Source of the DNA: a bacterium
Lineage (GTDB): Bacteria; Zixibacteria; MSB-5A5; CAIYYT01
Reading direction: 5' to 3'
Assembly: GCA_016708315.1 (NCBI GenBank)
Contig: JADJGC010000008.1
Coordinates: 31,699-95,698 of the forward strand
Length of the DNA stretch: 64,000 nucleotides
The translations under genes were made by a program, and so were the position numbers. Under the pieces are notes generated by a model that made no database searches, was not told the DNA's origin, and saw only the letters and a list, made by a program, of their open reading frames with translations. Shown here one piece after another: positions 1 through 45,996 of the stretch; position 1 is the first letter of the stretch; each line of letters opens with the position of its first letter.

Positions 1-230
1 CTTGGTCTTGAGCTGCGACGCTTTGACAAAAGGATTCACGCCTTTTGTGTTTGGCCGGGTTCGCGCTACGCAATGGTTCGCCCACGGAAATGAAGTTCGA
101 TTATTTCAAGTCAAAACGAGGAAAGTCCTCTTGGCTTAAATCACAGTTCAGCTGATAGAAAGCGACGGCTGCCTCTGTGTTTCAAATGGTGCGAACCATT
201 GGTCGTACTGCTTCAGGAAGGATTGCATGG

Positions 231-1136
231 TCAGATCCATAAGCACCTGCCGGAAGGCTTCCTTGTTGGGACGAGGCTCAGGGATGGTACCCAGGACAAT
301 GTCACCCTGACGACCGGTATCCAGGTCCGTGGCTTGAAGATTGACGTGAGCCTGGCTCCAATCGGCGGCTTTTGCCCCGCGTCCTTTTTGACTTCCAAGT
401 CGAGTGCCGCCAGGGCGTCGAGTTTGTCAGGATTCGTCAGTCCTTCGCGAAGCTTCTCGTAATACTGCCCCAACGTCACCGGCCCGATGCCGCCGATTGG
501 CTTGATCCCATCGGAATCATCGCCCGTGCAGGCGAGGAAGACCGCCATGTCCGGGCCCGTCAATCTTGCATTTGTTGGAAGGAATCCCTGTTTCAGATGT
601 GCATCAATATTCGCGGCGGTTACCAGCTGCCTCTTTTGCGGGTTGTAATGACTGACGTTAGTCTTCACGAGTTGGAGCAGGTCTTTGTCGTAGGAGACAA
701 TTACCGCTGGGTTGCGGCTCGATTGAACTGCTTTGGCAATGAGGTCTTCCGCCTCCATGCCGGGGAATTCGTCGCGAGCGCCGATCACGGCAATTCCGAG
801 GTGCGGCAGGCATTGCGCCAGCCGATGAAACTGTTGGCGCAGATAAGGTGACCCAGTCTTCCGCTTGTAGGTGGGCAGGAGTTCGGCGCGAAATCCATCC
901 CGTGACGAATCCGCGAAGGCGATGACGCGGGCGGGCCGCTGCTTTGCCAGCGTGCTCAGTTGGTTGAACGTCCCCACGAGACCCCATGTGGGTTCTCCCG
1001 TTACTCTGGAAGTAACCTGGCGTGGATCCAGACCGCGAGGGCCCGGCATGTATGCCAGCCGGTGAAGGAAACCGGTCAGGTCAATATAACAAGTGCTGCC
1101 GGGCGGCAGCAGCGGAAGCCCATGCGCAATCTTCAT
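231..1136 (-). CDS. 5'-3' exonuclease / flap endonuclease (PIN + H3TH), stand-alone (phage/Pol I N-domain-like)
   Basis: Motifs IDLTGFLHRLAY, AFADSSRDGFRAELLPTYKRKTG, YDKDLLQLV, GIKPIGGIGPVTLG match the Pol I 5'-3' exo / FEN family; ends TGA at 231-233. Confidence 0.8.
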   Translation of the reverse strand: MKIAHGLPLLPPGSTCYIDLTGFLHRLAYMPGPRGLDPRQVTSRVTGEPTWGLVGTFNQLSTLAKQRPARVIAFADSSRDGFRAELLPTYKRKTGSPYLRQQFHRLAQCLPHLGIAVIGARDEFPGMEAEDLIAKAVQSSRNPAVIVSYDKDLLQLVKTNVSHYNPQKRQLVTAANIDAHLKQGFLPTNARLTGPDMAVFLACTGDDSDGIKPIGGIGPVTLGQYYEKLREGLTNPDKLDALAALDLEVKKDAGQKPPIGARLTSIFKPRTWIPVVRVTLSWVPSLSLVPTRKPSGRCLWI

Positions 1137-1386
1137 CTCCCCATTCTAAGATCGCCGGGCCACGGTCGCTGGGTTGGCGCGCCCTGTCGGTGGATGTTAC
1201 GTCTGTGTCGCTTTCCTTCGTTTGCCAATGAAGAGCCTTTGTAGGAATTATGGGAAGCAATCGCGCCGGTGCGCGGGCAGGATCGCGCCGCAGAATGTTC
1301 CCGCCAAGAATGAAGTTGAATGCGTGCTTTCGCCTTCTTGCGCGGCTCACTTTGGTCACTTGCCGGCGTGATGATGCGGGCGTGAC

Positions 1387-2046
1387 TCAGGGCTCTTCCT
1401 CTTCCATTTCCGGCACATCGCCCTGCGCAAGGTTGCTCTCCACGACGTTGGCCGGAACGCCGGATGCTTTGGCTTGGGCGACGAGTTGCTCCAGCTTCGC
1501 CTTGCCCTCCACGCACGCCTTTTCCGGGTCACCGATTCCGAAGACTTGCTGCGATAGCAAAAGCTTCTGAACCTGACGATCCCAACCTGCCGTCGGGTCG
1601 GGTTGGATGTGCCGGAGAGCTTCGGCCGTCACTTGGATGTCTCGCAAAACCTGCCGCTGTTCGGCTGTGGGCGCAAAGATACCCGGGTTGTTGGACGCCG
1701 GTGTCACGCCGCCGGGATCTTGAGCCAAACATGCGCTCTGAGTGTTGTTCACGGTCGGGTTCTTTATGTCCTTGTCCGCCGGATTGAGTTCCTGAAGATA
1801 CCACGCTCCTTCGGCGAGAAAGAAATTCTGGATGTGGTCGCCGACATCCGCGCTGATGCCCGTGATTTGGTCATCCTGATAGGTGAACGCGTTGGCCAGA
1901 TGCTCCCGTCCCTGGTCATACAGGGCCACCACGTCTTCCCTGGTGTAAACTTCGACCAGCACGAACGGCTCTGTGATTTCCGCGAGTGGCTGGCCGGATT
2001 GGTTGTAGCGGAACGTCCCGCCGTGGGTGACGATTTTCAGTTGCAT
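1387..2046 (-). CDS. hypothetical protein (acidic C-terminus)
   Basis: 219-aa ORF, codon usage consistent with neighbours; no recognisable motif. Confidence 0.45.
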   Translation of the reverse strand: MQLKIVTHGGTFRYNQSGQPLAEITEPFVLVEVYTREDVVALYDQGREHLANAFTYQDDQITGISADVGDHIQNFFLAEGAWYLQELNPADKDIKNPTVNNTQSACLAQDPGGVTPASNNPGIFAPTAEQRQVLRDIQVTAEALRHIQPDPTAGWDRQVQKLLLSQQVFGIGDPEKACVEGKAKLEQLVAQAKASGVPANVVESNLAQGDVPEMEEEEP

Positions 2047-2083
2047 AAATTTCTCTCCATTCTAGGGCTCTTGAGTTGTCCTG

Positions 2084-3238
2084 CTATTTGAGTTGGACGA
2101 GCGTTTCCTTCAGACCGGGAACACCGGTGATGTTCCTGGCCAGCGCGGGTTGTTCTTTGAGCGCTTGCGCCACCAGATCGGAGGCTTTTGCAGTCAGGCG
2201 CTTCAGGAAGACGGCTGCCTGCGCCGGCTCCAATTCCGGCAGATGCTTGAGAATCATCAATAGCCTCGGCTTTTCTGGACGAGCTTCGAAGACCTGCACC
2301 CAGCTGCGGACCTTTCCGATGACAGGCCCAGCTTCCTGCAACTCTTCTTGCGCCGCTTCTTGCAGGTAATGCAACAAGGTGCGCTGGGTGCCGTCGCGAA
2401 AGGTGGCATTCTCGTAGCCAATGGTGCCCGACAAGTGATGGAGCAGTTGGCTCCACAACTCGCTCTTGGGTTCCATGCGCGCGAGTTGTGTCTCGGTGTA
2501 TCCCTTCAAGATGTCATTGGCATAATCCCACGTGCGCGGCGTCGCGTAAGGCTGAACGGCTTCAACCATTTCTTTGGTGAAATAACACAACCGATCCGGG
2601 TTGCTGGCGATGAAACCCCGGATACCGGGATTGATGTGGCTGCCCCAATTCAGCCACTCGAGATGATTGAAGGTGAGTTCATGCAGGTTAACCCGGGAGA
2701 TGATGGGGCTGGGAATGGGGTGAACGGCCTCGGAATCCTTCGGCCGGTTTCCAGCGAGCACGATGCGATTTTGTTTCGGAAAATTGTAGCTGCCGGTGAT
2801 GCATCGTTTTTGAGTCGCCTGAAAGATCGGCACCTGGGTGCTGGGCGGCACCGTGTTGAACTCGTCGAAGAAAAACACCCACAGCTCGGGATCGTCGGTA
2901 GCGGGAAATTCAAAGTTGTGCGCGTAGTAGGTGACGAGCCCGCTGGTGTTGTCCTTGATCCGATCCGGGTGAACCTTTCTCAATTCCTCCAGAGCAATGA
3001 CGCGCGGGATCCCTTTGAGTTCACTCGCATCGTAGCACGACAGCGGAATCACGCACAGGTTGGCTTTCAATTCCCGACAGACGTCCTCGACCAGGGCCGT
3101 TTTGCCGACTCCCGGCGGTCCGATGAAGCAGGTCGGCAGATCGATGTCCTTGTGCATATTCTGAAGCAGAATGCGCCGGCCAATTGCGTAGCCGATCGCC
3201 CGCTCCGGGAACAAAGGTTCTGCCAGGTTCTTTTGCAT
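2084..3238 (-). CDS. AAA+ ATPase (AAA_5 / MoxR-dynein-like)
   Basis: Walker A GPPGVGKT, Walker B FFFDEFN, second-region LAGNRPKD. Confidence 0.75.
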   Translation of the reverse strand: MQKNLAEPLFPERAIGYAIGRRILLQNMHKDIDLPTCFIGPPGVGKTALVEDVCRELKANLCVIPLSCYDASELKGIPRVIALEELRKVHPDRIKDNTSGLVTYYAHNFEFPATDDPELWVFFFDEFNTVPPSTQVPIFQATQKRCITGSYNFPKQNRIVLAGNRPKDSEAVHPIPSPIISRVNLHELTFNHLEWLNWGSHINPGIRGFIASNPDRLCYFTKEMVEAVQPYATPRTWDYANDILKGYTETQLARMEPKSELWSQLLHHLSGTIGYENATFRDGTQRTLLHYLQEAAQEELQEAGPVIGKVRSWVQVFEARPEKPRLLMILKHLPELEPAQAAVFLKRLTAKASDLVAQALKEQPALARNITGVPGLKETLVQLK

Positions 3239-3264
3239 CGTTTTCAGGTCGGAAGGAATTCGGT

Positions 3265-4359
3265 TCAGTGCAGGCGGCGTGGCATGGCCAGATACATGCA
3301 GTTGTGGCCTTGAAACACCAACGGTGATTGCGGCCCTTGGAGATCGAATCTTACCTGGGCGTCGGTGCTCGCCTCGAGCGCTTCGGCGATGTAGCGCGGT
3401 GCGAATACGGTCGTGCAGGTTTCCCCCTGATAGTCCATCTCCAGCGACTCGTGAAACTTGCAGGTGGTCTGGGCCTGGATCACCAGCCGGCGCCCCTCAA
3501 AATGCAGATCGACCGTGCCCTCCTTTTCCTCCACTGCGGCGCTGGCGCGCTTCAATGCCTGCAACAACGCCTCCCGCGAGATGCTGTTTTCCCGCTGCAG
3601 CGGCCGGATGAATTTGTGGTAGTTGGGGTAGCTCCCTTCGACCTGCGAAAAGATGAGCCGGTAGCGCCCGTTGGTGACCGTTTCAAAGTCAAAGCTGACC
3701 TGGCGCTCTCCTACCGTGCAAGTGACTTCGCTCTTCCAGGTCAAATGCGAGGCGAGCAACTTGGCGATGGCGCTGGGGATGATGCATTGCAAGTTCGGGT
3801 CGGAGGGTGGTGTGGTCGGCGTGAATTCCACCAGCGCCAGGCGTCGGCTGTCGGTGGCCACGACGCGTCCCTGTCCGTCCGGAAAGTGCAGGTAACAGCC
3901 GCACAAGACATGTCGTTCGTCGTCCACGGCGGCGGCGAAGACGGTTCGGCGCAACGCCATGCACAGAGTGGCTTGATCCACCTTGAACGAGTTCCCGGTG
4001 GGCGCGGGCACATTTGGAAAATCGTTTGGTGGCAGCTCGGGCAGAGCCAGCTCGATGTTTTCCGTCGTGAAGTTGAAATGCTTGCCCGAAGTGGATTGGG
4101 CGTGAAGTTCCCGGCCCTGAAGCGTCTTGGCAAATGCGAGCAGCTTGCGCGCTGGCACGAGCGCCACTCCCTCCTCGCCTTCGGCAGGAAAGGAACATTG
4201 CACCTGATTGCTGGCGTCAGTGCCGGTGAGCGTGAGCACCCCACTCTTGAGTTCGATGAGCACGTGTGTCGCCGCAGGCAAAGGGGTGCGGGCCGGGATG
4301 ATGCCTTCGACAACCTCCAGCGCTTTCTGGAATTCTTTGGCGACCGTGTTGAACTTCAT
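3265..4359 (-). CDS. dnaN: DNA polymerase III beta subunit (sliding clamp)
   Basis: 364 aa; N-terminus MKF..V..ARTPLP..HVLIELKSGVLTLTGTDASNQV and ATDSRRLA are typical of DnaN. Confidence 0.85.
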   Translation of the reverse strand: MKFNTVAKEFQKALEVVEGIIPARTPLPAATHVLIELKSGVLTLTGTDASNQVQCSFPAEGEEGVALVPARKLLAFAKTLQGRELHAQSTSGKHFNFTTENIELALPELPPNDFPNVPAPTGNSFKVDQATLCMALRRTVFAAAVDDERHVLCGCYLHFPDGQGRVVATDSRRLALVEFTPTTPPSDPNLQCIIPSAIAKLLASHLTWKSEVTCTVGERQVSFDFETVTNGRYRLIFSQVEGSYPNYHKFIRPLQRENSISREALLQALKRASAAVEEKEGTVDLHFEGRRLVIQAQTTCKFHESLEMDYQGETCTTVFAPRYIAEALEASTDAQVRFDLQGPQSPLVFQGHNCMYLAMPRRLH

Positions 4360-4527
4360 GTCGTTTTAGGTGTTTGGCGCAGTTGTGCTCATTCGAACGC
4401 GAACGTGAGATTTTCCCGGCTGTTCTGAAAGGGAGCCGGGCATCTGGCCGAGGCAGATCTCGACCGCTTGTCGGGCTTGAGGACCTCGCCGTTGCCAAAG
4501 GAGAGGCCAAAATCCAGCTCGAGATTC

Positions 4528-7500
4528 TCACCGTTGGCTCGAGGCCGCACGCAAGCCGATGTAGAATTCGTGAACTGGGCCGGGACAGCCGCGCGCGGCG
4601 AACTCGGCCTGGTAATCGACGTTGTTAGCCTCAGCGGGCCGCGCCTCGGCCAGCAGCGTCTGCATCAATTCCAGTTCGCGCATCTTCTGGGTTTCAGCCA
4701 GTTCCACCAATTCTTCGTTCGTGCGCTGGGTGACGTTGCCGCTGACCAGCTCCACGTTGGCGTTGTTGCGGCGCAGAGCCATTTGGAGCATGGCTTCGTC
4801 GATGCTGGCGCGGCTTGGGTGTTGCGTGACCATATAGGTCACATCCACCGTTGCGGCTCTCTGCTTGGGCCGGGCAATGCGCCCTTCCAGTTGTTGCAGC
4901 GGATAGAAGACGTACTCGGCCTCGACCACGATGAGGGCGGACGCTTTGACCAGATTGTTCAAGCTCTCGTTGATGAGCGGCGTCCGGGTTAGAAAGATGG
5001 GCTTGCGTGAGCGCACATAATGCTGGTCGATCCACTCGCGGCGTTTGTGCGGCTGGGCGGGACGCTTCTCATCCAGCTTGACGAAATCGAAATCCGCCGC
5101 GGTGAACATCTGCACCAGGAGCTCGTAAGTCTTCTGTTGTTTGCAGGCCACGATGACGTTGCGTCCGGTGACCACCATTTCCTGCAACAAAGTGATGAGT
5201 TGTTTAACCTTGGCCTTGAGCGCGACGGCCTGAAGCTCGGCCATCTGGGTGAACCAATCGCGACGTTGAGTGAGACTGAACACCGGTTTGTCGGCGACAA
5301 AGGTCTGCTTCATCGCACTCAGGACATCCTCGTACTCGTCGAGAATGTCGCCCTCCAAAGGGATCGCCAGGAAATGCCGGCGCACATCCGGAATCTTCAA
5401 CCCCATGCTCCGGCTGGTGGCGTGGAGTTGGGCTTGATGGAGATACTTCCACAGCTTCGGCGCGTTGGCGGGTTCAGGCATTTCCTGCTTGTTGCGGCGC
5501 GTGGCGATTCTGTTGCCCTTCGGGTCGTGGATGGCATCGCGCGTCACGCGGAAAGTGACGTGCTGTTCGATGAACTCGTTCTGCTGGTCGTAGGCGTAGG
5601 GGAATTCGGGTGAGTTATAGCCCCACGACAGCGTGAAGATCTGCCACATCTCCGCCGGGGTTCGGCGCAGCAGCGTGCCTGACAAGAGAAAAGTCCTCCG
5701 CGTGTGGATGGATCTGACGGCCTCATAAACCTTGGACTCGCCAGTCAATGAGTGGGCTTCGTCGCAAATTTTCGTGTCGAACAGATTCTTGATGAGCCGA
5801 TACGCCGGGAACTGCAACGCGCTGCGGAATCCCTGGTCGCCTCGGCGCGGCTTCTCCTCGTCGCCCAGTGCCGCCAGCAGGTCGGCCACCTCTGGTGCGA
5901 CTTCTCCGGGCGATTCGTCCTCGACCCGCCGGTAACTTCTGGCCAGGTAACCACACACGCGACAATGACCGTGCCGGGAGAACGTGCCGAATTCGCGCAG
6001 ACCGACGGCGGCCTTGCCGCGTTTGACGTACTCGACGACCTGTTCGCGAATGGCTTTGCGGGTCGCACAGCTCAATTGAATCCATTTCCGCGTCTTGCTG
6101 ACGTTGAAGAATTTTTGAGCGGCCAGTTCCAGGCAGCGCGGGCACTCCTGCACGTGCTGGTGGAAATGGAAGGGAACTCGTTTGACCTCGCCCGTGATGA
6201 CGTTCTGTTCTCTCAGTTTGAGGATCTGCTCCTTGACTTGCCGCTCGGCGTTTTCGCGCGTGCAAATCAGGGTGTGAACGCGTTCGTTGGCGTTGTCCTG
6301 CTCTTTAACGTCCACGGGATACGGATCGAAGGTCTGATTGGCCAGCCCGCCGATGGTGAGGAATTCCTGGGAGAGTACATAGAACCTGGTTCGTTCCGGC
6401 TCCACGCCACGGTTGACCTCCGCCTGCAGTTTACGAATGCAGGCAGCGCTGTGGATGTGCGTGACGTCCAGGCCGAGTTCATCGCGCAGTTCCTTGATGA
6501 TCTCGCCCAGAATCTTGCTCTTGGCGATGAAGGCCACGCGCCGCGCCCCGGCGGCGATGGCGGCGTAAGCGGCGAGACGGGTTTTGCCTGAACCCACGTG
6601 GTGAGTCAGCACCACGCCGCGTTTCAAAGACGCCAGGCCAGCGTGCAACATCTGGACGTCGGTGAGTTGAGCCTTGAGTTGGCTCAAGCACTGAATGCGC
6701 GCCTTCAACTGCTCCGGGTAGGCTTCCGAGAGAGTCTTGATTTCTGGAGGCGGAAACACGCGCAACACCTGGGCGAGGTTCGGGTCTTTGCTCGTGATGT
6801 GGATGCGGCGTCCGTACAGTGCCTTCAACCGTTGTTTGAGCTCGTCCACTTTGCCCGGATTGCCCATCGCGGCGGCCTGCTGGATTTGGCGGGTCAGATC
6901 ATATTCATCGGCCGTGATGACCTTGTAAGTGTTGCCGGTCTGCTGACTGTAAGCATGGATATCCGCCGGCTTAAGCTCGCTCGTCATCGCCAGCGCGGTG
7001 TAGGTGCAGTGCAGGCTCATGTTCCGGCGGGTAAGCCTGGCTTGGTCTTCCTGTCCCTCCTCGGCTTCCAGGAGTTGCGCCTCCGGCAACTCGATCACCT
7101 CGCTATGCTGGATCGGATACACGTAGTATTTTTTGCCCCGGATGAAAGCCCGGACCTTTTTGTTTCGGATGGTGAAGAACACATCCTCTTGGGCGCAGTA
7201 GTAACCGGGCTTGTAATAGGCCAGCAACTGGTCGCCCGTCGGCTTGATCATCGGCACAGTCTGCTGCCGGTAGAAGTCGGCCTGCTTTTCCATCCGACGC
7301 CGGCTCTCGTCACTGTCGGGAAATTCCAATCCAAGCAAACGATGCAGCGCGACGGTTTCTTCGTAGCCGATGGCAGAGGCGAGCAGCGGGTTGCGGACGG
7401 CGGTGTAAAGAGATGTCTCCCGCATTTCCACCGGGTTGTAAACCATCAGCTCCGGCATGAGCTTCAGAAAGAAACCGGCCATCTCACTGATCTGCGGAAC

Positions 7501-7914
7501 GCCGCTCGATGGAACTGAGACTTGTTTCTGCTCCTCAAGGTTGAACTGCGTGTCGAGATACTGGAGCGGGATGATCTCGCACTGGCTGGGAGCAACGGCC
7601 AGTTCGCTCTTTAAGCTCTCGTGCAAGTCAGACTGTTGGAAGTTGACGTGAATCTTGTCGATCACGTCGTCGCTGCTGAAGACATGATGCGGGCTGCTGT
7701 AGTAATCGGTCTCGTGTTCCAGCGAGCATCGGCCGCCGACGTTCAAGAAATAGACGTAATCACGGTTCTTGTGGCGCAGCGTGAAGCTGCCCAAGTGTCC
7801 CGGGACTGGCTTGGGGCTGACGATCAACGGCCGGAAACGCTGATCGAACATGGCAAGCGCCTCCTGGGGCTGATCCGTCAGCACGAGAACGTGAGCGGGC
7901 AGGCTCAAAGTCAC
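4528..7914 (-). CDS. SNF2-family helicase with about 430-aa unknown N-terminal domain and Cys-rich insert
   Basis: GSGKT Walker A, DEAHSL box, LLLSGTLL (SNF2 motif), helicase-C block (FLTRTPL...VVEAEYVFYPLQQLEGRIARPKQ); CPRC...HCRVCGY zinc-finger-like insert. Confidence 0.8.
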   Translation of the reverse strand: MTLSLPAHVLVLTDQPQEALAMFDQRFRPLIVSPKPVPGHLGSFTLRHKNRDYVYFLNVGGRCSLEHETDYYSSPHHVFSSDDVIDKIHVNFQQSDLHESLKSELAVAPSQCEIIPLQYLDTQFNLEEQKQVSVPSSGVPQISEMAGFFLKLMPELMVYNPVEMRETSLYTAVRNPLLASAIGYEETVALHRLLGLEFPDSDESRRRMEKQADFYRQQTVPMIKPTGDQLLAYYKPGYYCAQEDVFFTIRNKKVRAFIRGKKYYVYPIQHSEVIELPEAQLLEAEEGQEDQARLTRRNMSLHCTYTALAMTSELKPADIHAYSQQTGNTYKVITADEYDLTRQIQQAAAMGNPGKVDELKQRLKALYGRRIHITSKDPNLAQVLRVFPPPEIKTLSEAYPEQLKARIQCLSQLKAQLTDVQMLHAGLASLKRGVVLTHHVGSGKTRLAAYAAIAAGARRVAFIAKSKILGEIIKELRDELGLDVTHIHSAACIRKLQAEVNRGVEPERTRFYVLSQEFLTIGGLANQTFDPYPVDVKEQDNANERVHTLICTRENAERQVKEQILKLREQNVITGEVKRVPFHFHQHVQECPRCLELAAQKFFNVSKTRKWIQLSCATRKAIREQVVEYVKRGKAAVGLREFGTFSRHGHCRVCGYLARSYRRVEDESPGEVAPEVADLLAALGDEEKPRRGDQGFRSALQFPAYRLIKNLFDTKICDEAHSLTGESKVYEAVRSIHTRRTFLLSGTLLRRTPAEMWQIFTLSWGYNSPEFPYAYDQQNEFIEQHVTFRVTRDAIHDPKGNRIATRRNKQEMPEPANAPKLWKYLHQAQLHATSRSMGLKIPDVRRHFLAIPLEGDILDEYEDVLSAMKQTFVADKPVFSLTQRRDWFTQMAELQAVALKAKVKQLITLLQEMVVTGRNVIVACKQQKTYELLVQMFTAADFDFVKLDEKRPAQPHKRREWIDQHYVRSRKPIFLTRTPLINESLNNLVKASALIVVEAEYVFYPLQQLEGRIARPKQRAATVDVTYMVTQHPSRASIDEAMLQMALRRNNANVELVSGNVTQRTNEELVELAETQKMRELELMQTLLAEARPAEANNVDYQAEFAARGCPGPVHEFYIGLRAASSQR

Positions 7915-8270
7915 CAGACAGTTTTCGAGGAGTTCCCGGTAACTGGCGCAGTTGTCGCCGACCGCCTGAATATTCGAGATCCAGTAACGGCTGTGCGTAT
8001 CGGCAGCGACAGCCTGCTCTCGGCTCAGGTAAAGGGGATTGAGGTGACAGCGCCGGTGTAAGCCTTGTGCAGCGTATCAACGTTGGTGTACTTCCCGAGG
8101 CAGATCGCCAGCGAGAGGTTGGGACGGATTTTGCGGTAAAGCCGGACGATGAGCGAAACCCATTCCTGATCGGAGACGATGGTCCGCTTCTCCGGTTTCC
8201 TGGTTTTGTCCGGCTGGCAAGCGGGTGTGAGAGCGGGCAGAAGCGGCGGCTCAAGTAACTCTTCCATGCG

Positions 8271-8783
8271 TCAATTTTGTGTGGCCGCCTTCAAGAGGCG
8301 CTTGAGGACCTCGGGGGCAGGCTCGGCGATGACGCGGTAGCTTTTGTTTTCCGGGTTGAACTGGTCGGATTCCACCTCGCACCAGTCTTTCAGCAAGTCC
8401 GGCTGCTCCAGGATCAGTTCCTTGATCTTGAGCGTGTCCGCGTAAGTGAGTTGTTCACCGCTTTTGCGCACCAGCCAGAGCGCCAGCAAGCCGGCGCCCA
8501 TCGTCGGCACCAGGCTGGGGAAGAGCAGTTCGTTTGCTTGGTCGATCCCGCTGTCCATCGCGTGCCGGAGCAGTTTCCTGTCTCCATAAGCGGCGTGGCG
8601 GCCCTCGTGTCCAAGCAGGTCGTAACCCTGAACGGGCATCGGCTTTTCGCCGGTCTGGATCCGGACGAGGGCGAAGCTGGGTCGAGTCAGCGTGCCGTGC
8701 CAGTTGACACCCAGGAATTGCTGGTTGCGGGCCGCGTTGCTCACGATGACCCGGTTCCTCTGCTGCGGAAGAGCGCGGATCAT
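8271..8783 (-). CDS. hypothetical protein
   Basis: 170-aa ORF immediately downstream of the VWA gene (4-nt gap), same strand. Confidence 0.45.
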   Translation of the reverse strand: MIRALPQQRNRVIVSNAARNQQFLGVNWHGTLTRPSFALVRIQTGEKPMPVQGYDLLGHEGRHAAYGDRKLLRHAMDSGIDQANELLFPSLVPTMGAGLLALWLVRKSGEQLTYADTLKIKELILEQPDLLKDWCEVESDQFNPENKSYRVIAEPAPEVLKRLLKAATQN

Positions 8784-8786
8784 GGA

Positions 8787-10154
8787 TCAGAGATAAATGA
8801 CGGTGCCAGGAATGGAGAGGCCGGCGACCGCGCCCATGTTGCACTGCTTGGTAGTGGTAACCCACACGAAGTCGGCCGGGACGGAGTCGGGGAATGATCC
8901 TGCCAGATCGGTGAAAACGACGGTCAGGTCGCATCGATACTTGCTGTTTCCGCCCGGAGGCGGGCCACCGTTGGACAGCATTTCCTGGATGTTCGCGGCG
9001 ATGCAGCGAAAATCCGTGCCGCCTCCGCCGACGATCGCGAGCTCATTGAGGTTCTGGACCGGATCCCCCTCTTCGGTCACTTCAATGCGGCTCAGGATGG
9101 AAGTGTCAAAACAACTGATGCCGTAGGTCATCTTCTTCTTCCGCTTGGCGAAGAAGTCACGGAAGACCTTCATGCAGTCGCCGATGTCCCCGGCCGAGAT
9201 GCTGCCCGAGCAATCGATGAACAATTCGATGTGCCCGGTCTTCTCTTCGATCGGATCGGCCTTCTTGGGAGCAAAATAGTCGTTGGCCAGTTTCTTGTTG
9301 TGGTAAAGCGCCAGGTCGTCGGCGACGGGATACTTCGAGCGCAGACAGTCCATGATGGCCTCGCTCGCGTCGCGCGGAGGATTGGCCTTGAAATAGAGCA
9401 GCCGTATGCCGTTCATTCCTTCGCTGCCGAAATCGTTGGTCTTCATGAATTCGGCCACCCAATCGTTGATCATCTCCTGGGCGAAGGTTTCATGAACCTG
9501 CGGCGAAAAATCCTGCAGGTTCGCCACGCGTCCATTCAAATCCGTGAGTTCCAAGAGCGGCGTGCCCGTCAGCTCGGCGGATTGAAGTGCGCCCTGTTCC
9601 AACAACGTCAATGCTTCCTCTGCGATCTTGGGACCGGCTGGCAAGGCGGCCAGCGGTTTGAAGACATAACCGTGCTGTTCCCAGTGGGGCGAGTTGGCCG
9701 GCTGCTTGACCCCCAGCGACCGCATGTGATGCGCCACGGCTTGAGTGAAAGCCAGGTTGAGCATGGTCTGCTGATCCGGCGCCGCCTTGAGGTAACGCGT
9801 CTGGTAACCGAGCGCGAAATAGCTGGTGTGAAAGAGAACCAACCAGAACGCCGCCCTGTTCTTTTCGTCCTCGCTGATTGGCGCGGCATCAATGGCCTGC
9901 ACCACGCGCGTGTTGAGGCGCAATGTGTCCGACCAGATGAAACTCTGCTGGTCCAGTTCGATCTTCAGGTGGCGTTCAAAGATATTGCAGAAGGGACGGA
10001 GCAGCGGGTGATCGCGGTGCGCTTGAAACGCCTTGGCCAGGCGTGAATCCAGAGGCGAAAGCAAACCGCCAAGAGTCTGGCTGACAGCGCGCTGCGTGGC
10101 GGCGACATTCGCGTCATTCAGCGAGCGCGAGGTCAAGGGGGTGGTTGTGTTCAT
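8787..10154 (-). CDS. VWA-like domain protein (DUF2201/ViaA-like), likely partner class of MoxR-type ATPases
   Basis: C-terminal IELFIDCSGSISAGD (MIDAS-like DxSxS) ... VVFTDLAG; start moved to MNTTTPLTS (ATG at 10154) from ORF 8787..10271. Confidence 0.6.
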   Translation of the reverse strand: MNTTTPLTSRSLNDANVAATQRAVSQTLGGLLSPLDSRLAKAFQAHRDHPLLRPFCNIFERHLKIELDQQSFIWSDTLRLNTRVVQAIDAAPISEDEKNRAAFWLVLFHTSYFALGYQTRYLKAAPDQQTMLNLAFTQAVAHHMRSLGVKQPANSPHWEQHGYVFKPLAALPAGPKIAEEALTLLEQGALQSAELTGTPLLELTDLNGRVANLQDFSPQVHETFAQEMINDWVAEFMKTNDFGSEGMNGIRLLYFKANPPRDASEAIMDCLRSKYPVADDLALYHNKKLANDYFAPKKADPIEEKTGHIELFIDCSGSISAGDIGDCMKVFRDFFAKRKKKMTYGISCFDTSILSRIEVTEEGDPVQNLNELAIVGGGGTDFRCIAANIQEMLSNGGPPPGGNSKYRCDLTVVFTDLAGSFPDSVPADFVWVTTTKQCNMGAVAGLSIPGTVIYL

Positions 10155-10442
10155 GCTTTGTTGTTTGATGGGCAACTCGGGGTTGCGTGCGTGGCTTTTC
10201 GTTTGGCGGCCAACACGCATACGATGCCGACCTGCTTTCCATCGCCACCCCCGTTCAGCTCTCGCACTCATCCATCGAAAATGGGCCTGGGATCAAACGC
10301 CACAGGGTGCGCCGCCCTAAAATGGAACTGTCGGCCGTCCTGCAAGCGACGGACATAAGCTCCCCTGTCGGGAGGAGATGCGCTGGTGTAAACGTTGCCC
10401 GGTGCGGATGTCGGAAGCCTTTGGTCGGCGACGCACAACAAA

Positions 10443-10799
10443 ATGAAACTGCAGAAATTCCGCAACAGAAAGGCCAAGGGTTTCACCCTGGTGGAACTGA
10501 TCGCTGTCGTCAGCGTAATCCTCATCCTCGTGGCGATCGTCGTGCCCCGCATCGGCGATTTGCGCGGCAAAGCGGCTGACGCCCGCGCGCAATCGAACGT
10601 GAAGATCGTTCAGGGCGCGATCGAACGGGCCGCCGTGGAGGGCGCCCTCACGGCCGCCAACGCGACGGATCAGGCAGCCATCTACAGTGTGCTGACCACG
10701 GCCACCAATGGCATGTCCGGCGCTCCGTATCTGTCCGAAATGCCGAGTCCGGCGCCTACGATCAGCGGGGCGTTCCCCAACCTGAGCGTCGGTCAGTAA
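10443..10799 (+). CDS. prepilin-type N-terminal cleavage/methylation domain protein (pseudopilin)
   Basis: MKLQKFRNRKAKGFTLVELIAVVSVILILVAIVVP class III signal; terminator downstream. Confidence 0.75.
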   Translation: MKLQKFRNRKAKGFTLVELIAVVSVILILVAIVVPRIGDLRGKAADARAQSNVKIVQGAIERAAVEGALTAANATDQAAIYSVLTTATNGMSGAPYLSEMPSPAPTISGAFPNLSVGQ

Positions 10800-10823
10800 C
10801 GTGTCTGGCGTGCCCCACCAAGC

Positions 10824-22319: not shown

Positions 22320-24386
22320 CTAGAATGATCCCCAGACGAGACTCGTGAGTTTCTGGCTGGCGGAAGCGATCCCGCTCTTCAGAGCTTCCACGTTGCGGAG
22401 TTTCTCAAAGCGGTTGGTCCAGTCGCCGCTCGCCTTTTGAAACGCGTCCTGTGCCTGATTCAACTCTTCTTCCTGACCCCGGCAAAGCTCAGTGTAATCG
22501 GTGTCGTTTCGGTAATCCTCCGGTTTGGCTTTGAGGCCGTGTTCCAACTCGCCGAGCTGCCCTTGGATCATCTCGGCTTGCTGTTTGAGCCGGGCGCGTT
22601 TCCTGGCATTTTCGTGCGCTGTCGTCTGCTTCCCCAGCAGTTCGCGTATTCGCACGCTTCCCTGTTCGATTTCATGGGCCAGTCGAGCGTCTTCGGCCGC
22701 ACGCCCTTGCTCTGCCGGTGACTCGGATACGATTTTCTCGCGCAGAGCATTTGCCTCCTTAGTCGGCGGAGTCAGGGCCGCTGTGACCTTCTGGTAGCCC
22801 GCGAGCACAATCTGAATCTGGCCATCCTCACTTTCCGGAAGTTGGAAAGCCGCCATCTGGGCGTTCAACTCCCGGCGCTTCCCGGCGCAGGCCGTTTCGT
22901 CTTGTTGAATCTGCTGGCGCAGTTTCGGAATTTCCGTTTGAGCCTGAGTCCATCGTTGGTACTCCGCCGCGGCTTGCGGGGATTTCTTCAGGTCGGCTTG
23001 CAGCTCTTTCGCCAACGCGTTGAGTTCGTCGCGGCGCTGAACCAGGGCAGGCTTTTCCCAGGCACGCTGGCAGAGCGGACATTGTTCCGTGGCAACGGTG
23101 GCGTGGCGATGAAGGCTGACGAGTTCCTGCAGCTTTGCCTCACTGGCCTTGCATGCCTTTAGCACTGCTGGCGACGGAGGCCGAACCTGCTCATACTGCG
23201 CCAGTCGTTCCTTCTGCTGGCTCAAGGCATGTTCCTGTGCCAGGAGTTGATGACTTGCGGTGTGAAGCTGGGATATATGGTCGAGCGTCAGCCGGTACCA
23301 ATTCGGGCTGTGTTTGAGTTCCGAGACGGTCTTCTGACTTTCGACGATGATTTTCTCCAGCTTCCCGAGTTCGCTGCGGAGTTGTTCCAGCGCCTGGCGA
23401 GCGCGGGCGATTTCATTCCTGCGATTGATCTTTTTCTGGAGCGTGTCGCTGCTCTCCTGAATCTGTTCAGTGTAATTGGTGCTGTCCTCTGGTGTTCCCG
23501 CCAACTCCTCTTGCGTGCGGCTCAGTTCTCGCCGCGCTTTCTCGACTTTTTGATGCTGCAGAGCAATCTGACTTCGCGCCAGTGCCGCACGAATGGTTTG
23601 AATCCGTTTTTGCAGCTCATCCAAATCCGGCAGCGGTTGCGAGATCCCTGCCTGTGTCTGGGCGAGTTTTCCCTGCTTGGCGGTGAGTTCTTTTTCGGCG
23701 CTCTCACGGAGCGTTTTGATCTCCTGGAGGCTGTTGAGTTCGCGTTGCAACTCCTCCGCTGGCGGCAAGGCCGCAGCGGTGACCTTCTTCTCTTCGGTCC
23801 GCCTTTCAAGCTGCTGCAGTTTGCCTTCGACATCGTGCATCAGTGGACTTGGGTCGAGGACGGTCGGGTAAGCGCGAACGAATTTATTGAGGGTTGCCTG
23901 CTTTTGCAGGAATCCTTTGAACCCGCAAATCTCAATGAACTTGGTCAGCCGCTCCTTGCCGCGCTCTTTGAGGAGACTGGCGATTTGTCCCTGGGGCGCG
24001 ATGAACAATTCCAGGAGGGTTTCCTGGCGACCGAACCATTCCTGAAGCTGCCTTTGGATTTCGTCCGCGTTGGTCAGCGTTTTGTCCGCGAATTCCAGCT
24101 TGGCTCGGGTTTGGCGCGGCTTGATCTCTCGCGAAATGGTGAACTGCGTCCGCTCGTGGGTCAGAGCCGTGAGTCGCAGAGATGCCTGCTTCGCTCCGTA
24201 CTGGATCGCCGATGCATCGCCGAATTCGCTCCGTCCCAAGGCGAGCACCCGGCCGATTGCCCGGACGAGGTTGCTCTTGCCGGAATTGTTTGGCCCGCTC
24301 AACAGGATGATCGGTTCGTCCGGGAACGTCAGGTCCAACCGCGAATGCTGACACCAATGCTGCAATTCAAGTCGGAGGAGTTTCAT
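22320..24386 (-). CDS. sbcC: SbcC/Rad50-like ATPase N-terminal part (Walker A, coiled coil, zinc hook); split from C-terminal part by frameshift
   Basis: GPNNSGKS Walker A, long coiled coil with CPLCQR zinc hook; ends TAG 22320-22322 while the C-terminal domain continues in another frame. Confidence 0.8.
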   Translation of the reverse strand: MKLLRLELQHWCQHSRLDLTFPDEPIILLSGPNNSGKSNLVRAIGRVLALGRSEFGDASAIQYGAKQASLRLTALTHERTQFTISREIKPRQTRAKLEFADKTLTNADEIQRQLQEWFGRQETLLELFIAPQGQIASLLKERGKERLTKFIEICGFKGFLQKQATLNKFVRAYPTVLDPSPLMHDVEGKLQQLERRTEEKKVTAAALPPAEELQRELNSLQEIKTLRESAEKELTAKQGKLAQTQAGISQPLPDLDELQKRIQTIRAALARSQIALQHQKVEKARRELSRTQEELAGTPEDSTNYTEQIQESSDTLQKKINRRNEIARARQALEQLRSELGKLEKIIVESQKTVSELKHSPNWYRLTLDHISQLHTASHQLLAQEHALSQQKERLAQYEQVRPPSPAVLKACKASEAKLQELVSLHRHATVATEQCPLCQRAWEKPALVQRRDELNALAKELQADLKKSPQAAAEYQRWTQAQTEIPKLRQQIQQDETACAGKRRELNAQMAAFQLPESEDGQIQIVLAGYQKVTAALTPPTKEANALREKIVSESPAEQGRAAEDARLAHEIEQGSVRIRELLGKQTTAHENARKRARLKQQAEMIQGQLGELEHGLKAKPEDYRNDTDYTELCRGQEEELNQAQDAFQKASGDWTNRFEKLRNVEALKSGIASASQKLTSLVWGSF

Positions 24387-25498
24387 GCGGGCTTTTCGGG
24401 GAGCGCCAGCAACCCGGACAAAGTTTGGTCAAAAGGGTCTTGCGTGAGAACCACGGCGAGGAGTTGGAGTTGGCGTTCGGTGAGTTCCTTCTGTGCAATC
24501 TCCAAAATGTCGGCTTCCTTCATGTCTTGCAGCGGCTTGGCCATGCCTCGCGACAGGGGCACTTCGGAAAACACGAGAAGTTTCTCGCGCCAGCGAGGCA
24601 AATGTGGTTTGAGATTCGCGCGAAGCCTTTCGGGATAGTGCAACGCGAGTATTCCTCCCGGATGTTTCTCAACCCACTGATCCACGGATTGAACAGCCAG
24701 TTCGGCGTCCTCTTCCGGGCTGATCACCCGTTTCAAGTAAGGCCGGTTCGGCAGGTCGACGGTTTCCCAATTCTTTCCATGCTCCCGGCCAGGATAAAAT
24801 CGGAGATACTTTTTGACCGGGTCGTAACGTCCGCCGAAGCGATCACTGACGATGTTGCCTTCGGAGATTTCTGTCATCTCAGTCGAGCCGCCGTACACGA
24901 ACCAGTTATTCCCGACTGGATCGTGAAAATCGGTGTACGTGTGCAGATTCCCCATAAACACCGTGCAGTTCTTCAACCCCAGCCCCCTCAATTCCTCGGC
25001 GCTGAAATCGTACTCTGGCTCGGGCACGTGAATCGCCCAAGCCATCAGCTCCAAGAGCCGGCCATGCAGGAAAAGGCAGCGAGTGTTCTCCGGCAACTGC
25101 TTGATTTTCTCGTAGAGCGTTTCCCGCGGTTGAAACGAAAGAAATGCCGCGGCGATTTCGCCGAGGTTTACAATCCGGCCGTTGGCGTTGATTTCAGGGC
25201 CGACGGTGTCCAGCCACGAGGCGTCGCTGCCGTCGTGGTTGCCGTCAATCGCCAGGAATGCCTTTCCAGCGTTGCGGAGTCGTTGAGCGATGTTCTGGAG
25301 TTGGATCTGATATTTCGGCAGCAGGCTCTTCCTGTGAAACGTGTCGCCGGTAAGGATGACTGCCAGGCACTTTGGATTCGTGCAACCTTCCCGTAGAATC
25401 GCTTCGATGCACTGTTGATTGTCCTGGTGGCGAATCGGCAAACCGTATTGCGCGCGCTCCAAGTGGAGGTCGCCCGTCACGATGTAGTACCGATCCAC
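24383..25498 (-). CDS. sbcD: SbcD/Mre11-family nuclease
   Basis: Metallophosphoesterase motifs TGDLHLE, GDTFH, DGNHDG, LHGRL; 4-nt overlap with sbcC. Confidence 0.85.
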   Translation of the reverse strand: MDRYYIVTGDLHLERAQYGLPIRHQDNQQCIEAILREGCTNPKCLAVILTGDTFHRKSLLPKYQIQLQNIAQRLRNAGKAFLAIDGNHDGSDASWLDTVGPEINANGRIVNLGEIAAAFLSFQPRETLYEKIKQLPENTRCLFLHGRLLELMAWAIHVPEPEYDFSAEELRGLGLKNCTVFMGNLHTYTDFHDPVGNNWFVYGGSTEMTEISEGNIVSDRFGGRYDPVKKYLRFYPGREHGKNWETVDLPNRPYLKRVISPEEDAELAVQSVDQWVEKHPGGILALHYPERLRANLKPHLPRWREKLLVFSEVPLSRGMAKPLQDMKEADILEIAQKELTERQLQLLAVVLTQDPFDQTLSGLLALPEKPA

Positions 25499-29619: not shown

Positions 29620-29626
29620 CGTTCCA

Positions 29627-38044: not shown

Positions 38045-38641
38045 TCAGTTAAGATTGCGCAGGAAGTTTTTGCGATGCACGCCGGCGATGGGTCCGAATT
38101 TGCGGATGGCCTCGACATGTAACTTGGTGCCGTAGCCGACGTGCTGATCGAATCCATACTGCGGATACTGTGTGTGCAGCTCCCGCATTTGCCGGTCGCG
38201 CCGCACCTTGGCGAAAATCGAAGCGGTGGCGACCGTGATGCTGGTCTCATCGGCGCGTGGTGCGCATAGTCCGGGAAAGGTGTCGTCGGCGATCGTTCCG
38301 TCAATGATGACCCGGTCAAAGTGGGGAAGCTTTTGGAGCGCTTCCTTGAACAGTCGCAGGTTCAATGCGTTCAAGTTGCTTGTCTCCACCTCGGATGCCG
38401 ATGCTTCCGCGTACGCGACGTGCAGCAAGCCTTTGGCGACAAACTCCCGGGTTAGCAAGTCCACCAACTGCTCGCGTTCCGCCGCTGTCAGGGCCTTGCT
38501 GTCGCGAATGTCGCAGGATGGTTCTGCTGCGGAATCGTAGGCGCACGCCGCGACGACAAGGTTAAAGGCGAAGGCGCCGCGGCCAACCTCGTCGCATCCG
38601 GCCACGATGAGTCCCTGCTTGCGACCAAGGTAATCTTCCAT
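38045..38641 (-). CDS. rnhB: ribonuclease HII
   Basis: IVAGCDEVGRGAFAFNLVVAACAY, DSKALTAAEREQL, HRKNF; start at MEDYLGRKQG (ATG 38641). Confidence 0.85.
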   Translation of the reverse strand: MEDYLGRKQGLIVAGCDEVGRGAFAFNLVVAACAYDSAAEPSCDIRDSKALTAAEREQLVDLLTREFVAKGLLHVAYAEASASEVETSNLNALNLRLFKEALQKLPHFDRVIIDGTIADDTFPGLCAPRADETSITVATASIFAKVRRDRQMRELHTQYPQYGFDQHVGYGTKLHVEAIRKFGPIAGVHRKNFLRNLN

Positions 38642-38807
38642 GCTCCAATCGGCCTTCCGCCCTCTCATGCAAAATGGGTTTGGCGGAGATTCTTGCTTCC
38701 CCATACCCCATTCTAGGGCGGTGACTGGCGCGAGCGGGAAGAGCGTTACGTCAGGTTTGAAATCCCGATATGCCATCGCGTCCGGGGAGCGTTCGGATCG
38801 GACAGAT

Positions 38808-45500: not shown

Positions 45501-45996
45501 TGTGGTCCTGAATCAAGCGCTCGATGAACTGGAACCCGTACCGCTCCTGCCCGAGATTAACGCGGGTCTTGGGCGGGACATACCACGGCACCAGATTGGC
45601 GTGCATGCAACGACGCCAGTTCAGCCCGAGCTTCTGCAGGACGTGCGCGGTCAGCAGTGTGTAGGCTTCGCCGGTCATCACTCCGACAAACTCGCCGGGG
45701 TGCTTCTCCATTTTGCGCATTTCATGGAAGGAAGGATGGTGGGCGACCACCAGCACACGATTCCAGTCCGCCGGGCAATGGAACGGAAACCAGCATTCCT
45801 TTTGCTGGGTCGCGCGTTTGCCGGCCAGCGACCCTGTGAACTCTTGAAAGGGCGGACCGCCGTCGGTCAGTTGACGATATTGCCTTTCGGGAAACGGCGC
45901 CGGTTCCGCGACGAAGAGAGTCAGTTGGTCATCCGCTTTGGCGCGGCTTGCCAAAGCGGGGTTGCTGCCGTTGCAGTTGGACGCGCCATCATGCAC
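42568..45996 (-). CDS. polA: family-A DNA polymerase with 3'-5' exonuclease domain and N-terminal UDG-like domain (no 5'-3' exo domain)
   Basis: FSLDTEFVG (Exo I), LDYAAAEVQRLA (motif A), KTARDEAKPFTFGIPYQRG (motif B), ILLIDILHDSL (motif C); N-terminal ECWFPFHCP...VVAHHPSF reminiscent of family 4/5 UDG. Confidence 0.9.
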   Translation of the reverse strand: MHDGASNCNGSNPALASRAKADDQLTLFVAEPAPFPERQYRQLTDGGPPFQEFTGSLAGKRATQQKECWFPFHCPADWNRVLVVAHHPSFHEMRKMEKHPGEFVGVMTGEAYTLLTAHVLQKLGLNWRRCMHANLVPWYVPPKTRVNLGQERYGFQFIERLIQDHKPQLIISFGANVVTHLAGHLDGATVTELQGQLIPLDQYQSYLICATQPVSLLGNPEWIKSWERTLRGALKNWFNQTNDTKPDPPSHCLDSLDELQKHLQEIQDDREEVFSLDTEFVGHDITDYQILDIILATRSRTLNIRVREGRHEPVLRNPYDLPDDKGTVYIFPSEEAFKQWTPPGHTFRAYIDDVRWVFQGSQKELAEILKQYLRRPEIKIVGHALKVDVLQMLLFGVDLRDRMHICTYDLAKVLDEGQPQGLDDLIKVYLGKEDHKAEVARYRETRGITEGSYGLVPPEIRLPYGCKDGRRTFELVPVMLEDMKQQDEDLKRREPETYTKGWTLEHAYFEVKRKQMGALIEMELVGHPFSLKRLSENIEWYDSRLEILLADTVAYIKTRVTTSEVNPASAAQLRQILFNQPPQGIGLYPMFTTEKPAREWMRAVREILFRATAEPLLKSSVKLERADQTKVQSLLDWIHQQHGSAVFDLNDAATRKRLGSGECPFPLQIPERDYPVLTASTNQETLEMLATADPLCEKLNDCRSIATLANNYCRKDGSWGTSRVKEFLEALEAEGDADRDQLELFGAGEVDRKKAQDAKVVGKRQKAISMAVNREKSILFTTYWGSLETHRLRTSPNVSAIPKGEEEYVSKIIGEAPPHSIRGLEMAPRGWFMVELDYAAAEVQRLAQVSGDPNMTEIMNDPQRDPHASLARAKDPEHLGQLSDAEIKKHHKTARDEAKPFTFGIPYQRGNEAMARSLNREAVRAKQPVIHTAENVSHIKDAYRELYRVAWDYLEAQMNRVIAQEVGSTGRTYFTHKGVYGYQVSPAGFRRRYLDPALVRAILSQENRWDSELLRGLKDMRREASNWQIQHGVAIYIMEACANWVEFRQRNPNVPILLIDILHDSLRYLVHWSVVGLAQELLPRIMLEIPSNQRPRLRVEMKFTCEWNGPEVNEFVPHPDQPDIEIPGLKHLGLDGWNKVKP

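Follow-up and report, generated by a model that had tools for sequence, protein, structure and literature searches.

A conserved replication operon with its own sliding clamp, probably part of a large mobile element related to Verrucomicrobiota metagenome sequences

Introduction

Conjugative elements, to our knowledge, normally borrow the replisome of their host. Some possess both a type IV secretion system and a type IV pilus, such as the IncI1 plasmid R64 with its thin pilus and the islands of the PAPI-1/ICEclc type. Flap endonucleases that stand alone are found in bacteria and phages, for instance Xni/ExoIX of E. coli and D15 of phage T5. A primary-like sigma factor, finally, is seldom encoded by plasmids and more often by large phages. 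In the following, we analyze a stretch of 64,000 nucleotides (contig JADJGC010000008.1 of assembly GCA_016708315.1, positions 31,699 to 95,698; hereafter the window) in which genes of all these kinds occur together with a sliding clamp gene (dnaN) and with a family A DNA polymerase (PolA) that carries a region resembling uracil-DNA glycosylase (UDG).

Polymerases of this type have been described in phages: UDG-PolA fusions occur in N4-like phages (cluster #17) and in SPO1, SP-10 and SP-15 (Czernecki et al., 2023; PMC10201439). In Salmonella phage FSL SP-058, an N4-like phage (Schitoviridae), a COG3864 gene comes directly after the gene for a MoxR-like ATPase; going by its product label, this COG3864 gene would be a homolog of DUF2201/phrog_1314. 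The UDG-PolA gene lies 7.7 kb downstream of the ATPase gene. On the scale of whole replicons, giant extrachromosomal elements and conjugative megaplasmids have been recovered from metagenomes, such as the Inocles of oral Streptococcus (PMC12340149) and gut megaplasmids of more than 300 kb (PMC12934698), and further megaplasmids are reported from Enterobacteriaceae (10.1101/2025.09.30.679422). These three reports portray large, uncultivated metagenome elements with cargo and conjugation genes, in a size range like the 0.2–0.6 Mb of the contigs encountered here; they concern other hosts, and the likeness to the element described below is one of description. Literature searches brought up no relevant account of a comparable element from Verrucomicrobiota.

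An original prediction, made from the DNA letters and their translated reading frames, had taken the left end of the window for a phage- or plasmid-style replication module on a conjugative megaplasmid or phage-plasmid. We find that its genes belong to a longer, widely conserved operon, and we judge, with a probability of roughly 0.6, that we are looking at the core of an operon for replication and lagging-strand processing, one that belongs to a large mobile element rather than to the host's replisome.

Results

A conserved operon around dnaN

The window has a GC content of 58%, and nearly all of its long open reading frames (ORFs) lie on the minus strand. The features at its left end, and the distant polymerase gene, are:

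1..39, minus strand: ATP-dependent DNA ligase, first ~13 codons; the remainder lies beyond the window edge
148..1136, minus strand: stand-alone flap endonuclease (FEN, 5'-3' exonuclease), 328 aa; Pfam 5_3_exonuc_N (PF02739), E=4.8e-20
1137..1386: intergenic spacer between p219 and FEN, an insertion hotspot in relatives
1387..2046, minus strand: p219, conserved, family not recognized; two domains plus low-complexity linker, C-terminal tail acidic (EMEEEE)
2084..3238, minus strand: MoxR-like (AAA_5) AAA+ ATPase; Pfam AAA_5, AAA, AAA_3, AAA_7
3265..4359, minus strand: beta sliding clamp DnaN; Pfam DNA_pol3_beta, _2 and _3, all above cutoff
4389..8267, minus strand: SF2-type helicase-translocase, probably SNF2, ~1290–1340 aa; frame breaks at ~8035 and ~4591; delimited by tblastn with intact orthologs
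8271..8783, minus strand: p170, conserved, family not recognized; 3-nt gaps to the SNF2 and VWA genes
8787..10154, minus strand: VWA-like DUF2201 protein; Pfam DUF2201 1.8e-05 (25.3 bits, cutoff 26.4), phrog_1314 1.3e-13
42568..45996, minus strand: UDG-like region, 3'-5' exonuclease and family A polymerase, 1142 aa, no 5' nuclease domain

Read along the minus strand, the order is VWA-like DUF2201, p170, SNF2, DnaN, MoxR-like AAA+, p219, the 250-nt spacer, FEN and ligase, and the gaps from the VWA gene through to p219 measure only 3–38 nt. The operon is a larger unit than the four genes first noticed (FEN, AAA+ ATPase, DnaN and SNF2 helicase), all of which proved to be real in Pfam, NCBIfam and PHROGs, with the SNF2 assignment probable and the boundaries corrected.

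For comparison, we used contigs reached via homologs of DnaN, PolA and TraC, and 34 JGI/NCBI metagenome loci reached via an alignment of the AAA+ protein, each read within flanks of 10 kb. The operon order is kept in more than 40 independent metagenomic loci, a recurrence that argues against a chance arrangement. It persists down to a subclade in which DnaN identity is 38–44% and the AAA+ protein is still 59–63% identical. On the 3' side of the ligase, relatives encode p192, p230 and a DUF3854/Toprim-like protein, and a prepilin peptidase gene is often found between FEN and ligase.

Window positions 1–4592 match a short-read contig (L005) at 99.4% identity. The reading frames of FEN (~373–375), SNF2 (~4591 and ~8035) and TraC (~47750) are broken, as checked against intact, near-identical relatives. 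The FEN break is a homopolymer length difference, as expected of a long-read assembly, and we attribute the frame breaks to long-read homopolymer sequencing error. The start of the FEN interval at 231 and the end of the SNF2 interval at 7914, as originally given, are artefacts of these frameshifts. Judging by domain order, further genes are suspected to be split, namely an ATPase with MshEN and T2SSE domains, the MkoA helicase, the secretin at its N-terminus and SbcC at its C-terminus, and ORFs overlap at 29627–29685, 57275–57336, 15029–15964 and 22230–22320. A plus-strand ORF at 3328–4428 is a shadow of dnaN. Scans for tandem and dispersed repeats revealed no iteron-like origin in the operon, and a DNA search of window positions 1–8000 against a plasmid database returned no match. 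Looking up the exact DnaN sequence gave no record, and for the AAA+ protein a 9.9-kb contig was the sole result.

The sliding clamp

DnaN scores 182.5 bits on TIGR00663 (cutoff 137.65) and aligns end to end with the solved clamps PDB 4tsz and 1mmi, with three tandem clamp domains and the family length of ~365 aa. It also keeps the motifs of the peptide pocket, VATDSRRLA (VATD..RLA) and a C-terminal AMPRRL (MP.RL). Its homologs form a tight, metagenome-only clade at 49–94% identity, beyond which identity drops to ~30%. This more distant group consists of clamps of Verrucomicrobiota, Kiritimatiellia, Lentisphaerae and Planctomycetes (PVC), which are, by sequence identity, the closest cellular relatives of the window clamp. 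A DnaA-type Walker A motif lies ~1.2 kb upstream of these PVC clamps in 33 of the 90 loci compared, and in none of the loci of the clade. Likewise, neither dnaA nor recF was seen beside dnaN in the window or in its close relatives, all of which have the SNF2 and MoxR-like ATPase genes as neighbors; the absence of a dnaA/recF context, as originally predicted, is thus borne out for both.

Element-encoded, three-domain clamps outside a dnaA-dnaN-recF context are also known from Rhizobium phage 16-3 (p081), Arthrobacter and Nodularia phages, and Bacillus and Streptomyces plasmids. These are 25–29% identical to the window clamp, so that the chromosomal PVC clamps are slightly closer. Unlike these phage and plasmid clamps, the window clamp stands in a fixed operon, and the polymerase and helicase of the element carry matching terminal peptides (see below).

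The polymerase and its phage affinity

The exonuclease and polymerase domains of PolA exceed their Pfam cutoffs, and the expected pairing of a polymerase that lacks the 5' nuclease domain with a separate 5'-3' exonuclease was indeed found. On the PolI equivalog model, the protein scores 55 bits against a cutoff of 720, and this score, together with the UDG fusion, points to a phage architecture rather than to a divergent PolI. The UDG region of the window protein itself (residues 81–224) is a degenerate copy with sub-threshold matches (17 bits; NCBIfam UDG_fam4, 1.5e-4). The UDG(PF03167)-exonuclease-PolA architecture is clear in seven of eight distant, profile-linked relatives, for which the JGI label reads family-4 UDG.

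A word-indexed search returned only 24 homologs, all within the clade. A hidden Markov model (HMM) search of 1.84 billion protein representatives yielded ~10 full-length clusters (at 50% identity) above 350 bits, and ordinary PolI proteins stayed below 155 bits. PolA accordingly forms a separate clade of ~10 clusters, which does not group with any named phage subfamily. Matches to phages, among them N4-like Erwinia phages, are weak (24–28% identity over 15–34% of the protein), and a search against plasmids found none. A profile search of the PDB was uninformative, and an AlphaFold2 model built from an 11-sequence alignment is too poor for use (pLDDT 46.1). Compared with the N-terminally UDG-fused polymerases of N4-like phages, the window enzyme thus shares the architecture, at 1142 aa and with a degenerate UDG part, and belongs to a small clade of its own.

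Of the two proteins originally proposed for comparison with phage databases, PolA has an affinity to N4-like phages, albeit a weak one, and the clamp is nearer to PVC clamps than to those of phages. Sequence relationships mark PolA and the MoxR/VWA pair as phage-type and the clamp as PVC-type. The whole is probably a mobile-element replication module, part of which is of phage ancestry.

Putative clamp-docking peptides

The first ~20 residues of PolA vary among its relatives and are followed by a conserved DQLTLF (nt 45913–45927), in which Q24, L27 and F28 are invariant across the alignment; the most distant member reads QFTLF. A peptide of the LTLF type also occurs at the C-terminus of SNF2 in every subclade (QNLTFAFD, ENLVLLFDE, ENLTLQFDE, SLTLFPTEKS or ENLTLF), and the frame-corrected window copy ends in RENLTFAFE. 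These peptides fit the bacterial clamp-binding consensus, reportedly QL[SD]LF (Dalrymple et al., 2001). Within the 20,191 aa of the window ORFs, the tetrapeptide class [LMIF][TSD][LM]F occurs only three times.

The C-terminal tail of FEN is conserved as well (QPSLSIS, QPAFAIN, QPSLAMA or ELAIA) and may be a weaker variant of the clamp-binding motif. From these motifs we infer that PolA, SNF2 and perhaps FEN would be tethered by the element's own clamp.

One of the three tetrapeptide matches belongs to a conserved 152-aa protein encoded between PolA and TraC (46012–46470, minus strand), whose N-terminus carries EVFDLF; this protein may be another clamp client.

The AAA+ ATPase: MoxR-like protein or clamp loader

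In every relative, the gene for the AAA+ ATPase begins 27 nt behind dnaN. No other protein of the operon is as conserved as its product, which has a mean column identity of 89% in the alignment and invariant Walker A and B motifs (GPPGVGKT and FFFDEF). This constancy beside dnaN invites the idea that it is a single-subunit loader for a divergent clamp, all the more as no other loader candidate is present, phrog_168 (clamp loader) gives a weak match (5e-4), and a segment IISRV resembles the SRC box of the arginine finger. The best family matches, however, are all of the MoxR/dynein type (AAA_5 with 30.4 bits against a cutoff of 22, AAA_3, AAA_7, and phrog_1297 with 1e-39), and library scans gave no match to DNA_pol3_delta2 or Rep_fac_C (RFC). 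Moreover, the operon encodes a VWA/DUF2201 protein, a partner typical of MoxR systems that appears to adjoin the ATPase in N4-like phages too. Because the phrog_168 match is so weak and a delta'/RFC match is lacking, the protein is best read, from its family matches, as a MoxR-like ATPase with a VWA partner, and we consider the clamp-loader interpretation unlikely. A PDB profile search was uninformative here as well, and a single-sequence AlphaFold2 model (pLDDT 43.7) is too poor for use.

The VWA/DUF2201 protein is the likely partner of the ATPase; its ORF runs to 10271, and the N-termini of orthologs indicate that its real start is probably M40. The ATPase is 24–31% identical to MoxR-like ATPases of N4-like phages. 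As in FSL SP-058, the window thus holds a MoxR-like ATPase, a VWA/DUF2201 protein (inferred in the phage) and a UDG-PolA. The UDG-PolA gene is a few kilobases from the pair in the phage, where the two genes of the pair are adjacent, whereas SNF2 and DnaN stand between them in the window. The 25 kb of FSL SP-058 that we examined have no annotated beta clamp, stand-alone FEN or SNF2; the window, for its part, showed no virion genes.

SNF2 helicase, FEN, ligase and the variable spacer

The helicase is certainly an SF2 motor and probably, from its domain matches, an SNF2 protein: it exceeds the Pfam cutoff for ResIII (23.7 versus 22.5) and narrowly misses that for SNF2-rel_dom (24.3 versus 24.9), it stays below that for Helicase_C (19.6 versus 23.5), and it matches phrog_62 at 1e-21. 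A PDB profile search gave only SMARCA5 (E=0.067), and a search against phages gave no match. With gaps of 3 nt on either side, the neighboring p170 gene is coupled in translation to both SNF2 and VWA.

FEN scores 72 bits on PF02739 (cutoff 34) and has a PIN-like N-terminal nuclease domain. Two homopolymer length differences relative to L005 at ~373–375 (extra bases in the window) shift its frame; after correction, the protein ends in QPSLSIS. No H3TH domain (PF01367) was detected in the window ORF, the 3' part of which is out of frame. Like Xni/ExoIX and D15, FEN is a PIN-like 5' nuclease encoded apart from the polymerase. Unlike these, it has a distinctive conserved C-terminal tail, and its NCBIfam equivalog scores are far below the cutoffs (63 versus 305 and 49 versus 261). 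The ligase gene, truncated by the window edge, is complete in L005, where it encodes a 472-aa DNA_ligase_A_M protein and starts 108 nt after FEN.

The p219 gene always lies between the AAA+ gene and FEN. Its product has no match in Pfam, NCBIfam, PHROGs, the PDB or a phage tblastn search, and one might speculate that it could be an SSB-like factor. The spacer behind it, which we compared in L003, L008, L098–L108 and L122, holds 0.1 to more than 10 kb of cargo in relatives, mostly on the opposite strand (on the same strand in L008). This cargo includes KaiC-like, ResIII+PLD+DUF6361 and Hsp70-like genes. In L003 and L008, synteny ends after p219 and gives way to genes for ABC transporters, sensor kinases and CheA, with a rise in GC content from 0.58 to 0.64 in L003. 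We considered these points as element-chromosome junctions and rejected the idea, as the same spacer holds 1–10 kb of cargo in L104 and L102, after which FEN resumes. Since the break coincides with the spacer, it marks a cargo hotspot and not a proven border.

Two arrangements beyond FEN deserve separate mention. In L091 (DnaN 49% identical), a PRTRC-type cassette (PRTRC_E, Prok_Ub, Prok-E2_D and ThiF; 14346–17644) directly follows FEN, and RES-Xre and then Wadjet JetB/JetC lie beyond it. In L001, which stems from a 342-kb JGI contig, a radical SAM gene (14144–15268) is located between FEN and ligase, near a polymerase of the UDG type, an arrangement that recalls UDG/radical-SAM DNA-modification pairs.

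Genes of the carrier

The remainder of the window encodes functions of secretion, pilus assembly, transcription and DNA processing:

10317–11232, 15964–17904, 28531–30343, 30908–31705 and 35980–37275: secretin, PilB-like ATPases and prepilins, from library scans
11733–13073, minus strand: sigma-70 factor, 446 aa, regions 2, 3 and 4; ~200 bits on RpoD/RpoS-type models, under all cutoffs
22320..25498, minus strand: SbcC-like and SbcD-like nuclease pair; Pfam AAA_23/SMC_N and Metallophos
38045..38668 (38045–38776 in the scan listing), minus strand: RNase HII; Pfam RNase_HII 3.2e-25, orthologs of 207–208 aa
39409..41424, minus strand: DinG/XPD-type helicase; Pfam Helicase_C_2, DEAD and ResIII
46509..49047, minus strand: TraC/VirB4-family type IV secretion ATPase with one frameshift at ~47750; TIGR02746, AAA_10 and TraC_F_IV

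The Pfam matches confirm SbcCD, RNase HII and DinG in the vicinity of the module, and the predicted co-residence of type IV secretion and type IV pilus genes is seen in the TraC/VirB4-like gene, the secretin, the PilB-like ATPases and the pilins. TraC scores 226 bits (5e-67) on TIGR02746 (TraC-F-type; equivalog cutoff 567), and a relative of 96–98% identity is intact with 847 aa; the N-terminal fragment left by the frameshift in the window is 100% identical to MBK7091815.1. Its best plasmid matches are TraC genes of conjugative plasmids, its nearest outgroup lies in a TraU/TraN F-type cluster, and the gene adjoins PolA in every relative. No relaxase or type IV coupling protein was found among the 49 window ORFs (Pfam) or in the annotated related loci, where many ORFs match no family. 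Like R64 and the PAPI-1/ICEclc-type islands, the element joins a VirB4/TraC ATPase to a secretin, PilB-like ATPases, prepilins and a prepilin peptidase. In contrast to it, those elements have a recognizable relaxase and coupling protein and rely on host polymerases and clamps.

The pilus genes comprise three ATPases of the T2SSE family (one of them PilB/GspE-like, 380 bits), at least three N_methyl prepilins and one secretin; a PilC/GspF platform protein was not recognized among neighboring ORFs, many of which match no family. The sigma-70 gene lies upstream of the replication operon and beside the secretin gene also in L001, L003, L093, L104, L122 and L123.

Cargo is found at several places. 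In relatives, the stretch between PolA and DinG contains IS21 elements, a group II intron, AbiE and recombinases of the tyrosine and serine types, and the stretch after FEN contains the PRTRC ubiquitin-like cassette, RES-Xre and Wadjet. The window itself has an island of 13,038 bp and lower GC content (49612–62648) that is absent from the relative L086. Direct repeats of 130 nt and 80% identity (49482–49611 and 62651–62780) bracket this island; they are copies of the 3' end of a small gene that is conserved. Encoded in the island are Mokosh-like MkoA/MkoB, PDC-M26A and a trio of Ser/Thr kinase, PP2C and VWA genes, and no recombinase was recognized there.

Extent and company of the element

The relatives lie inside contigs of 204, 279, 320, 342, 402, 411 and 604 kb, and three of their metagenome-assembled genomes (MAGs) are labeled Verrucomicrobiota; by the labels of these related MAGs, the carrier is binned with uncultured Verrucomicrobiota. 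Collinear sequence extends over at least ~84 kb, made up of the window, 10 kb beyond FEN (L001) and 10 kb beyond the right end (L086, L090). In the JGI contig Ga0498944_000190 (341,898 bp), the distance from DnaN to TraC is 48 kb, much as in the window.

No tRNA was found in the window or in ~20 related flanks, no Rfam family in the window, and no gene for rRNA, housekeeping, translation or central metabolism is listed in its 64 kb. The cell-type genes that do occur in related flanks (signaling and ABC transport) sit at the cargo hotspot. The rRNA or core genes that would have spoken against the original prediction were not seen in the window, and the DnaN clade is metagenome-only. Regarding virions, families for capsid, portal, terminase and tail are absent from the 49 window ORFs (Pfam) and from 10 ORFs compared with PHROGs, and the Pfam annotation available in precomputed form for ~200 kb of related loci lists no virion genes. 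Two scans of IMG/VR, one with DnaN and one with the PolA alignment, found no relative.

Discussion

Several observations set the module apart from the cell's replisome: its clamp is only ~30% identical to cellular clamps, its polymerase scores 55 bits where the PolI cutoff is 720, its context is one of TraC and cargo, and tRNA genes are lacking. The phage/plasmid-style module originally proposed therefore stands insofar as it is of a mobile-element or phage type and not core chromosomal; its extension to a phage-plasmid is not supported, given that neither the virion, terminase and portal families searched for in the 49 window ORFs nor an IMG/VR relative in two scans came to light. A bolder version can be offered only tentatively: the window may derive from undescribed giant, extrachromosomal, conjugative elements of Verrucomicrobiota, 0.2–0.6 Mb in size, hybrids of phage and megaplasmid with a self-encoded replisome in which UDG-PolA, SNF2 and FEN are tethered to their own clamp, and with their own sigma-70 factor, type IV pilus, F-type-related secretion and exchangeable defense islands.

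If the operon acts as proposed, the element would make its own beta clamp, on which UDG-PolA and the SNF2 motor would dock via their terminal LTLF-type peptides, and this docking would render PolA processive. The stand-alone FEN, perhaps bound to the clamp through its C-terminal tail, and RNase HII would remove RNA primers and flaps, the ATP-dependent ligase encoded just after FEN would seal the nicks, and DinG and SbcCD would deal with obstacles and hairpins. The MoxR-like ATPase with its VWA/DUF2201 partner would most likely serve as an assembly or remodeling chaperone rather than as a canonical clamp loader. Such a division of labor, and likewise autonomous replication and conjugative transfer of the element, are what the gene content suggests.

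A number of points weigh against this picture. We recognized neither a replicative helicase or primase nor an initiator (Rep), an origin or a partition (Par) system, and likewise no relaxase or coupling protein; the DUF3854/Toprim-like proteins are only weak primase candidates. FEN is absent or a remnant beside the module in L003, L008 and L122, and may thus be dispensable or have been relocated behind large insertions. Clamp binding is predicted from short motifs, and both structure models are too poor (pLDDT 44 and 46) to assist. Several window genes are frame-broken, for which recent decay may be an alternative to sequencing error. Finally, the 0.2–0.6 Mb MAG contigs of the relatives are compatible with a chromosomal location as well.

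This last point leads to an interpretation that we regard as possible, though rather doubtful, namely that the module belongs to an integrative conjugative element of ~100 kb, or to an old, domesticated one, in Verrucomicrobiota chromosomes, where it would be replicated passively and use its polymerase set only for transfer-associated or repair synthesis. The position of the relatives well inside contigs of 204–604 kb, three of them in Verrucomicrobiota-labeled MAGs, fits this idea, as do the tyrosine and serine recombinases in relatives and the shift in GC content where synteny ends in L003. That end, however, and the one in L008, coincide with the cargo hotspot between p219 and FEN and do not demonstrate an element end; none of the borders showed an att site, a tRNA target or an integrase, and the at least 84 kb of collinear sequence contain no housekeeping gene.

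The two remaining interpretations appear much less probable. A jumbo phage or phage-plasmid genome, with the module as the phage's own and the virion genes beyond the window, would account for the phage hallmarks (UDG-PolA and the MoxR-like/VWA pair) and for the sigma factor and strong one-strand gene orientation, both common in large phages; we think it improbable, as no virion family came up in the scanned window ORFs or the annotated related loci, two IMG/VR scans gave no relative, and the TraC-type ATPase, with its outgroup in a TraU/TraN F-type cluster, points to conjugation. We give even slightly less credit to an ordinary chromosome of a deeply divergent PVC lineage, for which these would be the only clamp, PolA, FEN, sigma-70 and pilus genes. 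It is true that dnaN, polA, rnhB, dinG, sbcCD, an rpoD-like gene and pilus genes represent normal chromosomal functions and that the contigs are large. Yet PolA has a phage architecture, a TraC/VirB4 gene is conserved beside it, cargo of defense systems, toxin-antitoxin genes, insertion sequences and introns is dense, genes for tRNA, rRNA, translation or metabolism are absent from the 64 kb and from the listings of related flanks, and the GC content of the element is below that of the one host-like flank.

Taken as the replication operon of a large mobile element, the locus brings together a polymerase type so far described in phages, a private clamp and matching putative docking peptides, on an element with conjugation and pilus genes, and with clamp and peptide-bearing SNF2 in one operon. 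The predicted clamp-peptide pairs (DQLTLF of PolA and ENLTLF of SNF2) could show how a bacterial-type clamp makes a PolA-type enzyme processive. If it is only an integrated island, it would still represent a well-defined and widespread family of mobile elements, in which two sites of cargo insertion are mapped and one of these is a hotspot used repeatedly. If the carrier is autonomous, it would constitute a new class of large replicons in a phylum that is common in metagenomes yet poorly known, and show how plasmid-like elements recruit phage replication modules.

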